IMG/VR virus record: IMGVR_UViG_3300025603_000009 | Location: 1-64,000 of that record | Direction: 5' to 3' (one strand) | From: a virus | Length of the DNA: 64,000 nt | Shown here: positions 56,358 through 63,939 of the stretch, piece by piece | How the letters are laid out: the number at the start of each line of letters is the position of its first letter | Position numbering within the stretch: position 1 is the stretch's first letter | Made by a program: the position numbers and the translations under genes | Notes under the pieces: model-generated | Told to the model about the DNA's origin: nothing | Database searches by the model: none | Seen by the model: the letters and a program-made list of their open reading frames with translations, nothing else

Positions 56358-56657
56358 ATGGAGAATTTTGATCATATTGTAGAACAAATTAGTTATAATA
56401 CTAATTGGATAAAAACACTTATAGTTCCTAAAGATGAACTAATAAACTTTCATGCTGTATTTTATAATTTTAATATAAATATAGTAGCATCTAGTAGACT
56501 TACTAATATGAATCAATTTGCACCTATTATAATGTCTGCTAAAACTATAATTAAAGAAGATGTTGATTTTGCCGCTACTCGCGCTTTATTAACTACTGCA
56601 TATCATAGTCAAATGTCTGAAGGTAATCTTTTATATAAACAAGTTTTATTTAATTAA
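56358..56657 (+). CDS. hypothetical protein
   Basis: 99-aa ORF downstream of the plus-strand promoter candidate. Confidence 0.55.
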   Translation: MENFDHIVEQISYNTNWIKTLIVPKDELINFHAVFYNFNINIVASSRLTNMNQFAPIIMSAKTIIKEDVDFAATRALLTTAYHSQMSEGNLLYKQVLFN

Positions 56658-56754
56658 AAATACTAGTTTCATAGCTGGTGATTTGTGTTTTAAGTTGTCT
56701 AAGTTAGAGGGGGAAGTAGTGACTCCCCCTTATACTTAACTCACTACTATGAAT

Positions 56755-56797
56755 TATGAGTATCTCATATATGAGGGTATATGAGGGTATATGAGTG
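56755..56797. repeat. 10-bp phased TATATGAGGG repeats with an inverted copy of the core
   Basis: TATGAG-TAT-CTCATA, then TATATGAGGG x2 and TATATGAGTG. Confidence 0.85.
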
Positions 56798-56809
56798 GTT
56801 TTGGTTAAC

Positions 56810-56848
56810 AAGAAAAGATGGTGGAAACGTTCACCATCTTTTTCTTTT
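56810..56848. terminator. bidirectional terminator
   Basis: AAGAAAAGATGGTGGA-AACG-TTCACCATCTTTTTCTTTT. Confidence 0.8.
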
Positions 56849-57047
56849 ACATACTTATTCAAAGGCGCAACTAAATAATAATGTAATATAAATTAGGTAT
56901 TTTAATAAATATAACTTAACTTGTATATCTAGTTTAAAGAGTATGTCCGTACTCTATAAGTGCTGTCTAACACGAATACTATTAAACGTAGTAGTATTTT
57001 GTTTACTATTTATTATGTGGTTTTGTCATGATTTTTCCACATACATG

Positions 57048-57086
57048 AAAAAGGTTATAAAGTTTAATACTTTGTAGCCTTTTTTT
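57048..57086 (+). terminator. intrinsic terminator
   Basis: AAAAAGGTTATAAAGT-TTAAT-ACTTTGTAGCC-T7; the G-U pairs favour the + strand. Confidence 0.7.
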
Positions 57087-57338
57087 GTGTCTTATATATT
57101 TATATAAATACTAATATGGATGGGACTTAAAAAAATTATATAAATTATATTATAAATGTTGTTAGTTCGCTTTATGTTTGTAGTCGCATTGTTTGTATAC
57201 CCCCGTATGTACATATGATTACTAAGTGTACTACCCACCTTGATTCAACCCCCCTTACTTATTTTTGACATGAAAGTACCCGTGGGTATTCGAGCGTCAT
57301 CACTATTTATTCACATTATCTTAATACACACAAATCTT

Positions 57339-57944
57339 ATGAATACTTTTACCATTACTAACGTGCGTCTGTTACCTCAGATTGGAACTAACGCGCCTGC
57401 TATGATTATTGATGTTGCTAACCATACTACTGGTATTTACCGTAGTGAGAAGGTGGCACTGATTGACCTTCGTGATGCAGGCATCACTGCTACTAGATTA
57501 GCTGACGTTGAACTCGTTGAACTACGTGAACGCTTCATTGGCGGTAGAGTTAGTGGAGACATTATCTTCCACAATGCTGGTAGCACATACATTGCTGATG
57601 CAAACTCTACTGCTGTCGTTAGCGGTGCTGTCGAAGTTGGTGCTACACTCAAACGTAAGGCTGACCAATTTCGTGTTGAACGCTTTCTTACCATCTCCCG
57701 TAGTGATAACGCGATGCTGCGTTCTGCTATTGCAAAGGAAGCTGGTCAGGCAATGGCACAGCTATGCGGAGGGTTTGTTCCTTCTGCTAACGTTGGTGCT
57801 AGTGCGCAACCAGCATTAGAGGTTGGCGGTAATCATCCTGATGAAGATGATACTGTTGATGGTGACGCTGAAGAAGCTACTGAAGAAGCTACTGAAGAAG
57901 CTACTGCTCCTGTTGGACGTAGAAGCCGTCGCAAGACAGCATAA
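57339..57944 (+). CDS. first early-region protein, function unknown
   Basis: Likely ATG at 57339 after an A/C-rich leader; visibly GC-richer with GCT/CGT/GGT codons; acidic EEAT repeats and a basic tail. Confidence 0.8.
   Translation: MNTFTITNVRLLPQIGTNAPAMIIDVANHTTGIYRSEKVALIDLRDAGITATRLADVELVELRERFIGGRVSGDIIFHNAGSTYIADANSTAVVSGAVEVGATLKRKADQFRVERFLTISRSDNAMLRSAIAKEAGQAMAQLCGGFVPSANVGASAQPALEVGGNHPDEDDTVDGDAEEATEEATEEATAPVGRRSRRKTA
57870..57905 (+). repeat. 12-bp tandem repeat x3 (EEAT)
   Basis: GAAGAAGCTACT three times. Confidence 0.95.
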
Positions 57945-57946
57945 TA

Positions 57947-58018
57947 TGCGAAACGACGATAGTAGCGATACTATCGTCGTCTATCACACGTGATGGTGTG
58001 GTACTGATGAGCAGTCAC
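57947..58018 (+). ncRNA. type II hammerhead ribozyme
   Basis: TGC-GAAA-stem III (GCGA loop)-GTC-stem I-CTGATGA-GCA with every core nucleotide present, plus a loop I pseudoknot to GTCAC. Confidence 0.92.
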
Positions 58019-58158
58019 TAATGTACGCATACGTAGTTATTACGTGTGTGTACGTAAGCATAGTCTAATCATACTTACAGCGCGAACACTGTAATGTCTC
58101 AGACTTGTCTCTTTATTAATGTCTTAGAATTAACAACACAAATAATACCACAGAAATT

Positions 58159-58530
58159 ATGATTAAGTTTTCTAAAGTGATTAGAACTATACTACTATCA
58201 ATAGTATTAATAATATTATTCATACAATTGTATGGTGATGTATTCAGTACTACTATGCCAGTATTACTTATGGCTCAATTGATGGCTTGTATTGGTATTG
58301 CATTCATATTCTTTACAGATCATAACGAATATGATGATTGGACTCAAGTAAAACCTAAAGACTGTGATGAATCTCGTAGATATTGCAATGATATAAAATG
58401 TATTAGTGGCAATACTACATTTCTTGGTAGTAGATATGATTCCAGTGATGCAGTTGTATACAAGTATAGGTGTTATGATTGCAATACTACATATGAAATT
58501 GCAGAAGTACGTTTAAGAAAGAGGTTGTAG
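58159..58530 (+). CDS. membrane protein with two TM helices and a C-terminal Zn-ribbon-like motif
   Basis: Two hydrophobic segments; CNDIKC...CYDC. Confidence 0.65.
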   Translation: MIKFSKVIRTILLSIVLIILFIQLYGDVFSTTMPVLLMAQLMACIGIAFIFFTDHNEYDDWTQVKPKDCDESRRYCNDIKCISGNTTFLGSRYDSSDAVVYKYRCYDCNTTYEIAEVRLRKRL

Positions 58531-59139
58531 ATTAACAATGATAGTAGTATTTGCATGATTAATGATATTGTGCAGATACTACTTGATTTAATACTTATAA
58601 TAATACTAGTATCTTAGCATTGACATTGATCGAAAGAAAACGAATGTGTTAGTGTATATTCATACCATACTAATTAGTATATGTCAATATTTAGTGTATA
58701 TTATATATAAGGTATAGATACATTGACAAGTCTACGTACACATACAATACTATATTCAATAGTATTTGCATACACACAATCCCTAATTATAAGTTTATAC
58801 TATACTTGTACACATAATATAGTGACATATACTCACTGTATTTATGCAATTACTCAAGATAAGCGTATAACTAACAGTATTAGAGTAGCTATTTGCATTA
58901 ATAATAATAATGTATTAATACTATTCACACTATTTATTACTACTTCAGATACTTGAACTAATGATAGTATCAGAGTTTATTATGTATTAACTTTCACAAG
59001 CGTTTCCTTATAACTTTGGAATGTTAGTCTTACTCTTATGCTTTAGTCGGCAATAACATTTATTACAATTAGAAGAAATACCTAGTGTATAGAACAGCAC
59101 ACTAATTGTAGTATTTGTATCATCATAAAAATTAGCATT

Positions 59140-59346
59140 ATGAAACTTAGTATGAAAAGATATACTGTAACTATTAATTTCATTTTTAATAAGACAGGTA
59201 ATGTAAAGAGTATTGTTGAGAATGTAAAAACATTAAAAGAAGCATTGTCTTATAAAGATATACTTGATGAAACTGTATCTACAGCACGTATTAAAAATAA
59301 TGTTACAGGTAGAATTAAATGGTTAATACCTCACACAATTAAATAA
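59140..59346 (+). CDS. hypothetical early protein
   Basis: 68-aa ORF with an A-rich leader. Confidence 0.65.
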   Translation: MKLSMKRYTVTINFIFNKTGNVKSIVENVKTLKEALSYKDILDETVSTARIKNNVTGRIKWLIPHTIK

Positions 59347-59358
59347 ATAATAAGAATT

Positions 59359-59526
59359 ATGAGCAAGCGAGTAACAGCAAAGTTTTTACCTGAAGAAAAG
59401 AAAATGAAATTCTTAACAGTATCTAAAGAATACATAGTATTGCGAACAGATGCAGGTGATAATGTATTTATTACAGCCGACGATGGTACTGTTCGTCCTT
59501 ATGCACGTAGTATGTTCGAGAATTAG
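59359..59526 (+). CDS. small hypothetical protein (not in the ORF track)
   Basis: MSKRVTAKFLPEEKKMKFLTVSKEYIVLRTDAGDNVFITADDGTVRPYARSMFEN, 55 aa; fills the gap between genes. Confidence 0.7.
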   Translation: MSKRVTAKFLPEEKKMKFLTVSKEYIVLRTDAGDNVFITADDGTVRPYARSMFEN

Positions 59527-59565
59527 TATCATCATTTCAATTCATTGTTTTAATACCTACAACAG

Positions 59566-59730
59566 ATGAAAAAAATATTAGTATTAGTAGTAGTATCTAT
59601 GATGGTAACATCATGTGTAACTAAACACACAACACAGGGATACAAAAATGTGTGGGAAACTAAAGATGGTAAGATGCGCAAAATGCGTACAACTGAACGT
59701 CCGTTATGTATTGATTCTTGGAAGCCATGA
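59566..59730 (+). CDS. small lipoprotein (not in the ORF track)
   Basis: MKKILVLVVVSMMVTS-C lipobox, 54 aa; ATGA overlap with the next gene. Confidence 0.75.
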   Translation: MKKILVLVVVSMMVTSCVTKHTTQGYKNVWETKDGKMRKMRTTERPLCIDSWKP

Positions 59731-59939
59731 GTGACAACACGAGACATATATGGGAGGGTTGGACAGTCCAAAACTTCATTGATGAACTGGAAATAACTTT
59801 CGGTTATCAAAAGCTAAAAGATCTTAATGCACTAAAAAAATGGTGTATGAGTGAGCAACCATACTACAAAAAGCATATACCAGAAGTGTACAATCACTTC
59901 AAACAAAAGTTTGTGCCTGCGGTTGATATGTGGGACTAA
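59727..59939 (+). CDS. hypothetical early protein
   Basis: ATG at 59727 coupled to the upstream TGA; IWEGWTVQNFIDEL...QPYYKKHIPEV. Confidence 0.75.
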   Translation: MSDNTRHIWEGWTVQNFIDELEITFGYQKLKDLNALKKWCMSEQPYYKKHIPEVYNHFKQKFVPAVDMWD

Positions 59940-59952
59940 TCATTAAACATTT

Positions 59953-60034
59953 AAAATGTCTCTTTTATGGGCGAGGTTAATAATCCACTTTTAAATAAGC
60001 ATTATTAATAGTGGTTCAAGTCCACTGCATTTTT
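59953..60034 (+). ncRNA. tRNA-like RNA 1 (non-canonical)
   Basis: 7-bp acceptor-like stem AAAATGT/GCATTTT abutting a canonical T-arm AGTGG-TTCAAGT-CCACT. Confidence 0.6.
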
Positions 60035-60040
60035 TATAGT

Positions 60041-60148
60041 AACTTTCATCCAATTGCGGGTGATTAACCATATCAGATAAACATTGTTATTGCTCAATCT
60101 AGTTATAGAGCCTTTGTTTCTTGTCAAGGTGCAACCTTGTGAGAGTTA
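60041..60148 (+). ncRNA. tRNA-like RNA 2 (non-canonical)
   Basis: 8-bp closing stem AACTTTCA/TGAGAGTT abutting CAAGG-TGCAA-CCTTG. Confidence 0.45.
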
Positions 60149-60187
60149 TTATTTATTTAAGTATTTATAATCATTAAAGAAAAAGAA

Positions 60188-60418
60188 ATGGAAAAAATGC
60201 ACGTTCAAATAAACGAAGAACAACCTCTTGCAGCAATAGAAGAAGTATTAAAAGCAGCAGATGTTGCAAAAATAGACCCTTCTTATCCAAACGAAAAACA
60301 AGTTTTATTAGTTATTTATTCAGATGCTTTTTACTGCACTTATAGACATGATGTAAGACTATTTGACGAGGAATTAACTACATTACCACAACTACTAAAC
60401 ATTTTAAAAGATGCTTAA
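60188..60418 (+). CDS. hypothetical early protein
   Basis: 76-aa ORF in a tightly packed run. Confidence 0.7.
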   Translation: MEKMHVQINEEQPLAAIEEVLKAADVAKIDPSYPNEKQVLLVIYSDAFYCTYRHDVRLFDEELTTLPQLLNILKDA

Positions 60419-63687: not shown

Positions 63688-63939
63688 ATGGCTTACGATA
63701 TAGAAATAAAAAAAGAAACACCCAACTTAAAAGATGTTAAAGTAGCTGATTTACCTTGTTTAGGTAAAAATAAGATTACTGGGAATATTTCCCAATTAAT
63801 AGGTGTAAATGGTAATCAATTTATTACACATAGCCGTAGATCTAGTGCAGTGTGTGGTGATAGTAGTAAGGGTGTTAGATTGTTATCAAACTACACTTTA
63901 GCACCTCCTAACACCTCAATAACAATCACCCAACCCTAA
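63688..63939 (+). CDS. hypothetical protein
   Basis: 83-aa ORF. Confidence 0.65.
   Translation: MAYDIEIKKETPNLKDVKVADLPCLGKNKITGNISQLIGVNGNQFITHSRRSSAVCGDSSKGVRLLSNYTLAPPNTSITITQP

Follow-up and report, generated by a model that had tools for sequence, protein, structure and literature searches.

A type II hammerhead ribozyme and a candidate RNA cassette between the first early genes of a Crassvirales-like phage

RNA elements among the first rightward genes

Here, we analysed a stretch of 64,000 nucleotides (nt), referred to as the window, which comprises bases 1-64000 of the 82,585-base-pair (bp) IMG/VR virus record IMGVR_UViG_3300025603_000009. Our subject is the region 57945-60187, in which a hammerhead ribozyme, two hairpins and two conserved RNA modules, named T and A, lie between co-oriented genes at the head of the rightward, early-type gene block. 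The long leftward block (5619-56283) encodes the major head protein (PHROG, E-value 5e-101), the portal, the large terminase and a protein of 3,780 amino acids (aa) with a DFDVD motif. The head protein shares 37-40% identity with its counterparts in GenBank crAss-like phages; this identity and the content of the leftward block mark the phage as Crassvirales-like. The rightward genes (57339-82407) are closely packed except for a few long gaps. In the region under study, the otherwise tight plus-strand array opens into non-coding gaps of 214, 609 and 248 nt, in agreement with the large intergenic spaces pointed out in a first-pass annotation of the sequence. The features of the region are listed in Table 1.

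Table 1. Genes and RNA features at the head of the rightward block (positions in the window; ORF, open reading frame)
Feature	Position	Strand	Remark
P0001, first rightward gene	57339..57944	+	201 aa
Type II hammerhead, Rfam RF02276 (Hammerhead_II)	57946..58020	+	53.3 bits
G-U-containing hairpin, 15 bp, directly 3' of the ribozyme	58021..58055	+	z-score -4.91
Second gene, hydrophobic N-terminal half	58159..58530	+	123 aa
Non-coding gap, 609 nt	58531..59139		one 17-bp hairpin, rest unstructured
Hairpin, 17 bp, near the start of the 609-nt gap	58543..58583	+	z-score -7.16
Four small ORFs, no family	59140..59939	+	68, 55, 54 and 70 aa
Module T, tRNA-shaped RNA	59953..60033	+	11 distinct sequences (alignment A2)
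Module A	60040..60149	+	11 sequences (alignment A3)
Next gene, start 38 nt past module A	60188..60418	+	76 aa

A hammerhead had been proposed for this region from the sequence alone, and the Rfam search confirmed it: the Hammerhead_II model matches over its full length (model positions 1-66) with 53.3 bits against a gathering cut-off of 37 (E-value 3.7e-8 over 64 kb). It is the sole Rfam family above its cut-off in the window, the 82,585-bp genome holds one copy, and none of 14 control genomes gave a match. The ribozyme starts 2 nt past the P0001 stop codon. According to the model alignment, its open-ended stem II consists of 3 bp (UGC 57947-49 with GCA 58011-13), the core strands GAAA (57950-53) and CUGAUGA (58004-10) carry the conserved CUGANGA ... 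GAAA signature, and the cleavable NUH triplet is GUC, with C17 at position 57981. Stem III (57953-64/57969-80) is a perfect 12-bp helix closed by a GCGA loop of the GNRA type and stem I (57982-89/57996-58003) has 8 bp; both are recovered by the minimum free energy (MFE) fold (z-score -3.48). The loop I sequence GUGAU (57990-94) is complementary to GUCAC (58014-18), a pairing read from the sequence with no tool score, and this partner strand lies just 3' of stem II, as in the type II pseudoknot. Judged by its sequence, we consider 57946-58020 a genuine type II hammerhead with all features needed to cut. By analogy with characterised hammerheads, self-cleavage after C57981, yielding a 2',3'-cyclic phosphate and a 5'-OH, is a well-founded prediction.

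The two hairpins at 58021-58055 and 58543-58583 reach -20.3 and -20.2 kcal/mol, respectively, and for neither of them was any of 200 shuffles as good. On the minus strand, the same segments reach only -10.7 and -12.0 kcal/mol; owing to their G-U pairs, each hairpin is roughly twice as stable on the plus strand. The first-pass annotation had spoken of several such long hairpins, of which these two stand, while a sliding scan of the region yielded no further significant plus-strand structure and left 58640-59140 unstructured. The 609-nt gap also contains TATTTGCAT three times on the plus strand within 350 nt (58548, 58763 and 58890), and one more copy occurs elsewhere on the same strand of the genome. 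Related sites of the form TAGTAGTATTT(T)G were seen at 56989 and 59105. Five TAGTATTTG-like sites were tried as a promoter motif and dropped, as their alignment was unconvincing.

The region had also been described as lacking obvious U-tract terminators. This holds with a single reservation: a consensus scan flagged one weak plus-strand candidate in its non-coding gaps (60009-60027), formed by the T arm of module T and the U run behind it (6 pairs, 3 of them G-C, then 3 nt, then CAUUUUUU). A second plus-strand candidate (57533-57558) lies within the first gene. The postulated contrast to the late block was borne out, as canonical terminators occur there, e.g. at 44007-43982. Sigma-70-like sites are not enriched (43 found vs 54 expected from shuffles), and the Bacteroidota-type motif TTTG-N17-23-TAnnTTTG occurs twice on the plus and four times on the minus strand of the genome, with no match in 57945-60187.

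Modules T, A and B

Module T has the outline of a transfer RNA (tRNA). It combines an A/U-rich, acceptor-like stem of 7 bp, a D-like stem of 3 bp whose loop contains GG, and a T arm (AGUGG-UUCAAGU-CCACU) that is followed by a U run; where a tRNA has its anticodon arm, there is a long arm of variable sequence and length. The T-arm stem has the 5 bp of a tRNA T arm (AGUGG/CCACU), and the motif GGUUCRANYCC gave one match (60013-60023) against 0.07 expected, with at least one match in 7 of 100 shuffles. In contrast to tRNAs, module T has no anticodon arm, a single base as variable loop and no junction linkers at positions 8-9 and 26, and CCA is encoded in none of the 11 sequences.

A fixed 28-nt pattern from the T-arm region was used to search metagenome contigs and returned 14 loci, sampled in the ocean (TARA) and elsewhere, among them contigs of 75, 97 and 99 kb. 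Since loci were selected by this 3' 28-mer, their 3' 28 nt are invariant by construction; the 5' half AAAAUGUCUCUUUUAUGGGCGAGGUUA, which was outside the search pattern, is conserved in 13 of the 14 loci (L025 is truncated). Between these halves, the loci differ completely in sequence and length, so that the arm ranges from 22 to ~100 nt and the total length from 81 to 152 nt. A model with four helices, comprising the acceptor-like, D-like and T stems and the base of the long arm, finds all 227 of 227 alignment cells paired (40-73% in slid controls), and compensatory change occurs at three pairs (10/21, 30/124 and 31/123). For 5 of the 11 sequences, the window copy among them, the four-way fold is also the unconstrained MFE structure. 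Module T is oriented like the flanking small ORFs at 10/10 loci, and the base preceding its first A is U in 9/11 sequences, which fits the preference of bacterial RNase P for U at position -1. The window copy, the only one in the genome, scores 95.6 bits with model R1; with default filters, this model did not return locus L028, although it was in the training set.

Module A is built differently. Its 8-bp closing stem (AACUUUCA/UGAGAGUU) encloses a variable body, the sequence UCCAAUUG behind the 5' strand of this stem is nearly invariant, and a hairpin (CAAGG-UGCAA-CCUUG) abuts the 3' strand, with a GC-to-AU exchange in 2/11 sequences. The 11 sequences represent about seven body types. In the alignment, 96.5% of the cells are paired compared to 34-55% in slid controls. 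The closing stem covaries at pairs 6/156 and 8/154, with CG, AU, UA and UG at one and CG, UA and UG at another, and it was recovered independently by RNAalifold. The hairpin loop UGCAA may also pair with a conserved UUGCA (90.9% of cells pair, one compensatory pair); this pairing can be an alternative or an addition to the hairpin. Model R2 gives the window copy 80 bits, and again there is one copy in the genome.

Both folds had been taken for tRNA-like elements. They are conserved RNA modules, but neither is a tRNA by ARAGORN or Rfam, and neither is present in Rfam 15. Module T has no match to the Rfam models of transfer-messenger RNA (tmRNA) or Y RNA. Ribozyme families of this release (HDV-like/theta, twister, pistol, hatchet and others; HDV, hepatitis delta virus) gave no match in 59930-60190 at E <= 10. 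We thus regard module T as tRNA-shaped but not a tRNA, as far as its sequence and predicted fold can tell.

Are the two modules a property of this phage lineage? A contig of run X12 (depth 45) matches 59950-60147 only, differing there by three substitutions and one deletion, and is unrelated to the window on either side of this segment. The T and A pair is ~98% identical in L027, an unrelated phage contig of 98.8 kb, where it has different flanks. This degree of identity in an unrelated contig indicates that the pair moves as a cassette. T and A have a patchy distribution, and the T-A pair has recently been transferred between phages. The order T-A is found in this phage and in L027, while the orders A-A-B-T, A-A-T, A-T and T-B-A-small ORF-A occur elsewhere, with spacers of 4-17 nt between modules. 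In larger contigs, T and A have tRNA genes, tmRNA and ribozyme-like matches as neighbours, on the same strand where given. These include a full tmRNA at L016:975-1347 (+), a cut-off one at L028:1-436 (-), a twister-P1-like match at L028:2479-2528 (-) with 43.6 bits, below its cut-off of 67.2, and a RAGATH-1-hammerhead-like match at L015:574-644 (+) with 38.4 bits, below its cut-off of 56.3. Hammerhead_II has no match in the other carrier contigs. The terminase of one carrier, L029, shares 30% identity with that of the phage studied here. Two exact patterns for the modules found no match in 185,579 species genomes.

A third conserved and RNA-like block, B, has the form GGGGAAAGC.GAAAUCCCUUAAA.AAAUAGAAGCUAGAGCUACAU ... 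hairpin ... GUGCUGAUGUAGAAGG. It adjoins T and A in four contig types (approximately L016:1650-1835, L017:2170-2400, L018:755-900 and L028:4910-5050, minus strand), matches no Rfam family at E <= 0.1 and does not occur in the genome analysed here.

Three other identities were considered for these elements. An attachment site (attP) or tRNA remnant was ruled out, as the AAAAUGUCUCUUUUAUGGGCGAGGUUA half is conserved, the D-like stem covaries, the phage has no integrase and both exact-pattern scans of species genomes were negative. A Y RNA acting with Ro was rejected, as the TROVE gene (PF05731) is absent from the genome and no Rfam match was obtained. Ligation or circularisation by RtcB was ruled out as well, since the genome holds no RtcB gene.

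Neighbouring genes and distant relatives

Searches for closely related loci returned little. Neither blastn of 57000-60400 nor tblastn of P0001 and P0007 found anything in GenBank phages, no related locus was found with P0001, a 342-aa exonuclease-like protein or alignment A5, and the sole return of a homologous-protein search was a strain variant with 98% identity. The records of 10 distant relatives (terminase identity 32-42%) were compared.

The first gene has a GC content of 0.41, compared to ~0.29 genome-wide, and its product combines an EEAT repeat of acidic character with a basic tail. We found 31 remote homologues of comparable length. None of the 32 family members matched Pfam or PHROG, and P0001 has no match in PDB sequences or the ESM Atlas. 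Members of this family of ~200 aa have a beta-rich N-terminal part (R..KQF..DL.NS, GG.V.GD....AG..Y ... DG.RVEGFL), followed by an acidic linker and then the basic tail. By tblastn, the homologue is the first gene of the divergent block in L002:2166-2744 (-) and L006:5098-5718 (-); counting the phage studied here, a P0001-family gene thus opens this block in three crAss-like phages that are only distantly related. In both L002 and L006, an ORF follows at a position similar to that of the second gene; in L002 it looks membrane-like, judged by eye from the sequence.

Why should a ribozyme sit directly behind the first gene? In L002 and L006, a strong hairpin (~9 bp and G+C-rich in the former, ~18 bp in the latter) follows directly after the stop codon of the first-gene homologue, and no ribozyme is found there. 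With a hairpin in these relatives and a hammerhead here, the position seems to need a hairpin-ended 3' end of the first message. A hammerhead can supply such an end because stem III remains on the upstream product, with transcription continuing. This requirement would account for the exact placement of the ribozyme.

A long non-coding gap after the second ORF is likewise found in these relatives (at least 544 nt in L002 and at least 366 nt in L006), with no sequence in common with the 609-nt gap of the window. The gaps at L002:810-1723 (-) and L006:4008-4373 (-) have a purine/G-rich first and a pyrimidine/C-rich second half, which suggests a long-range fold.

At the divergent junction 5' of the first gene (56640-56920 and 56960-57160), both strands are strongly structured (z-score down to -5.4), and a 10-nt tandem repeat (TATATGAGGG, 2.8 copies) and a terminator-like hairpin (57047-57085) were noted. 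A small ORF further downstream (63688-63939, 83 aa) shares 76% aa identity with an ORF of L027 (2700-2924, minus strand), a likeness that points to the swapping of small early genes among co-occurring phages. The only tRNA gene of the genome at default thresholds, tRNA-Thr(UGU) at 71695-71779 (85 nt by ARAGORN, 35.2 bits in Rfam), lies outside the window and far from T and A. All 24 listed metagenome runs with words of the phage are labelled salt lake metagenome, and none of them is an RNA data set; six of these are possible sources, and six further runs from six studies hold at least half of its words.

Interpretation and comparison with known systems

All of the element types named in the first-pass annotation are present on the coding strand and between co-oriented genes. 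This is compatible with its proposal of a long early RNA that is cut into units, which we regard as partly supported. Starting from the observed motifs, their common strand, their conservation and their mobility, we infer a single long early transcript whose head is a collage of cis-acting RNA elements: the hammerhead would cut, T and A would serve as cut-and-protect signs, and small RNAs would be released. Our confidence in this picture is evenly balanced between acceptance and doubt.

In detail, the hammerhead would cut after C57981 and leave the first-gene mRNA with a 3' end made of the 12-bp, GNRA-capped stem III and a cyclic phosphate. The downstream RNA would begin with a 5'-OH, followed by stem I and then the 15-bp hairpin. 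Such a cut would make the first gene, presumably highly expressed, independent in its fate of the genes behind it while transcription goes on, with stem III protecting the first message and the 5'-OH and hairpins protecting the downstream RNA. Within the portable cassette, which occupies the gap from the fourth small ORF to the next gene, T (7+5 bp) and A (8+5 bp) could each present an acceptor/T-like stack that is read by host tRNA-processing enzymes; cut by RNase P and RNase Z, they would be released as small RNAs. That RNase P, Z or III would cleave the two modules is pure conjecture.

Several results weigh against this scheme. At default settings ARAGORN finds no tRNA in the window, it calls module T only at a threshold of 80%, at which the genome yields 31 calls against a mean of 33.8 in random sequence, and the Rfam tRNA model (RF00005) has no match in the 261 nt around T and A even at E <= 10. 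T thus fails the tRNA detectors. A has just an 8+5-bp acceptor/T-like stack. Covariation in the D-like stem of T comes from one sequence only. The acceptor stem is paired in 11/11 sequences, but acceptor and T helices never vary and thus lend no covariation support. On alignment A2, RNAalifold recovered the T arm and a competing local 5' hairpin only, and not the acceptor, D-like and long-arm helices. Thermodynamically, both modules and the gap are unremarkable (z-score -1.32 for T, -1.08 for A and -0.39 for the whole gap). The hammerhead copies in contigs of four runs show no differences, leaving no diverged homologue for covariation. A comparative search in relatives, which had been put forward as a check, turned out negative: Hammerhead_II was found in 0/10 records of distant relatives at its cut-off (best 15 bits, E-value 0.15) and T and A are absent from 4/4 near-complete ones, so the parts are not inherited together. 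Finally, since promoters of the virion polymerase lack a recognised motif, separate transcription units are possible.

The main alternative view is that T and A, and B elsewhere, are free-standing small RNAs acting in trans, e.g. as a decoy or sponge of tRNA shape for host enzymes or defences that target tRNAs, in which the swappable arm carries specificity and the position between genes is incidental. Such a role would suit an almost invariant module T frame whose arm is replaced wholesale across metagenome contigs, the variation of T and A in order and number, and their presence within tRNA/tmRNA clusters in L016, L027 and L028; moreover, both modules end in U-rich tracts, like small RNA genes. 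However, no partner protein is in sight, with genes for TROVE/Ro, RtcB and integrase absent from the genome, and spacers of 4-17 nt are too short for own promoters, which implies co-transcription and a need for processing in any case. Because such spacers imply excision from the same transcript, this view is compatible with processing of a long early RNA. We consider it possible, if doubtful.

It is unlikely, in our view, that T and A act as DNA, either as recombination cassettes shuffling small early genes or as compound terminators or promoters, with the folds being secondary. The cassette did move between unrelated phages and its boundaries coincide exactly with the ends of the modules, the ORF 63688-63939 is likewise common to this phage and L027, and the T arm with its U run fits the terminator consensus; mobile promoter/stem-loop cassettes are known from T4-type phages. 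But compensatory changes maintain helices whose strands lie 60-140 nt apart, and G-U pairs (U7-G146 in T, U-G in the closing stem of A in the window) form only in plus-strand RNA. Conservation of the single-stranded UCCAAUUG and of the GG and T loop would also be left unexplained. Least probable is that the hammerhead alone is functional, with hairpins and 609-nt gap as spacer or replication-origin DNA and early genes that are self-promoted and self-terminated: although 58640-59140 lacks local structure, the TATTTGCAT repeats of the gap could be protein-binding or promoter sites and early promoters of crAss-like virion polymerases have no known motif, this fails to fit two strand-asymmetric hairpins that beat 200/200 shuffles, the conservation of T and A over unrelated contigs, the long gap kept after gene 2 in L002 and L006, and the abundant early RNAs from comparable gaps of phage phi14:2.

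Returning to processing of a long early RNA, a more far-reaching version can be formulated, which we put forward tentatively and would sooner doubt than accept. In this version, T, A and B would be undescribed phage RNA families that travel as cassettes between unrelated saline and marine crAss-like phages and act together as a portable RNA punctuation kit. In this kit, T would serve as a tRNA-shaped scaffold that lacks an anticodon and presents a swappable arm. A would be a compact, possibly pseudoknotted RNA with invariant single-stranded bases, either a new self-cleaving motif or a handle for RNase P or RNase Z. Together with classical ribozymes, the kit would set ends and lifetimes of early messages independently of host terminators.

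Early gene expression in crAss-like phages is poorly known, and neither promoter nor terminator signals have been recognised for their virion polymerase. A hammerhead ending the first early gene and two mobile RNA modules offer concrete and cheap handles on early RNA processing. The T family constitutes a natural tRNA scaffold with exchangeable hairpins, and modules A and B are candidates for RNAs found next to ribozymes, a setting that has previously yielded new ribozyme classes.

How does the locus relate to known systems? The long helix in place of an anticodon arm has counterparts in the tRNA-like domain of tmRNA and in YrlA Y RNAs, which combine an acceptor stem, a T arm with canonical T loop and a D-loop analogue with GG, and in which the variable loop is almost absent. 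Unlike in tmRNA, the third pair of module T is A3-U70 instead of G3-U70, and an mRNA-like domain is missing.

Hammerheads flanking phage genes, and ribozyme punctuation of phage transcripts, have been known from the literature since 2011 (Perreault et al. 2011, PMC3088659), including an example in haloviruses HF1 and HF2 that heads an early operon. Like those hammerheads, the one described here is of the canonical pseudoknotted type II, intergenic and located between co-oriented phage genes, and the role proposed there, cutting a polycistronic RNA to gene-length pieces, would be compatible with our locus. Unlike them, it is a single copy in a Crassvirales-like phage, follows immediately on the first early gene and is replaced by a plain hairpin in two relatives. 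In plant mitochondria, tRNA punctuation and t-elements let RNase P and RNase Z define the 5' and 3' ends of mRNAs (PMC1920247). Module T likewise is a tRNA-like fold between coding regions, but t-elements are organellar and experimentally mapped, whereas T is devoid of anticodon arm, variable loop and junction linkers and its cleavage is predicted. Theta (minimal HDV-like) ribozymes adjoin tRNAs of Bacteroidota phages and were proposed to process tRNA 3' trailers in cis (PMC10879173). The resemblance consists in a small structured RNA a few nt from a tRNA-type fold; in contrast, module A has no HDV-like Rfam match, and its outermost helix, by eye, misfits the nested HDV topology.

The closest parallel within crAss-like phages is phi14:2, for which abundant early non-coding RNAs of unknown function were reported to arise from two long intergenic regions located among the first genes, and in which early transcripts share no common upstream motif (Drobysheva et al., 10.1101/2020.03.07.982082). 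Both phages have long intergenic regions among the first rightward genes, and by analogy the 609-nt gap may be a source of early non-coding RNA. In contrast to our locus, neither sequence nor structure of these regions is presented in that preprint, whose consulted passages report no ribozyme or tRNA-like element. The combination had been thought undescribed for crAss-like phages, and accordingly we found no paper linking hammerheads to them in the literature searched; in one paper on crAssphage, the term ribozyme denotes group I introns. Thus, phage hammerheads flanking genes, organellar punctuation by tRNA-shaped RNAs and ribozymes adjoining phage tRNAs were known already. What appears to be new is the combination of a ribozyme and RNA modules at the head of a crAss-like early block, a ribozyme in place of a hairpin at a conserved position, and two RNA families (three with module B) that are not in Rfam and move as cassettes.

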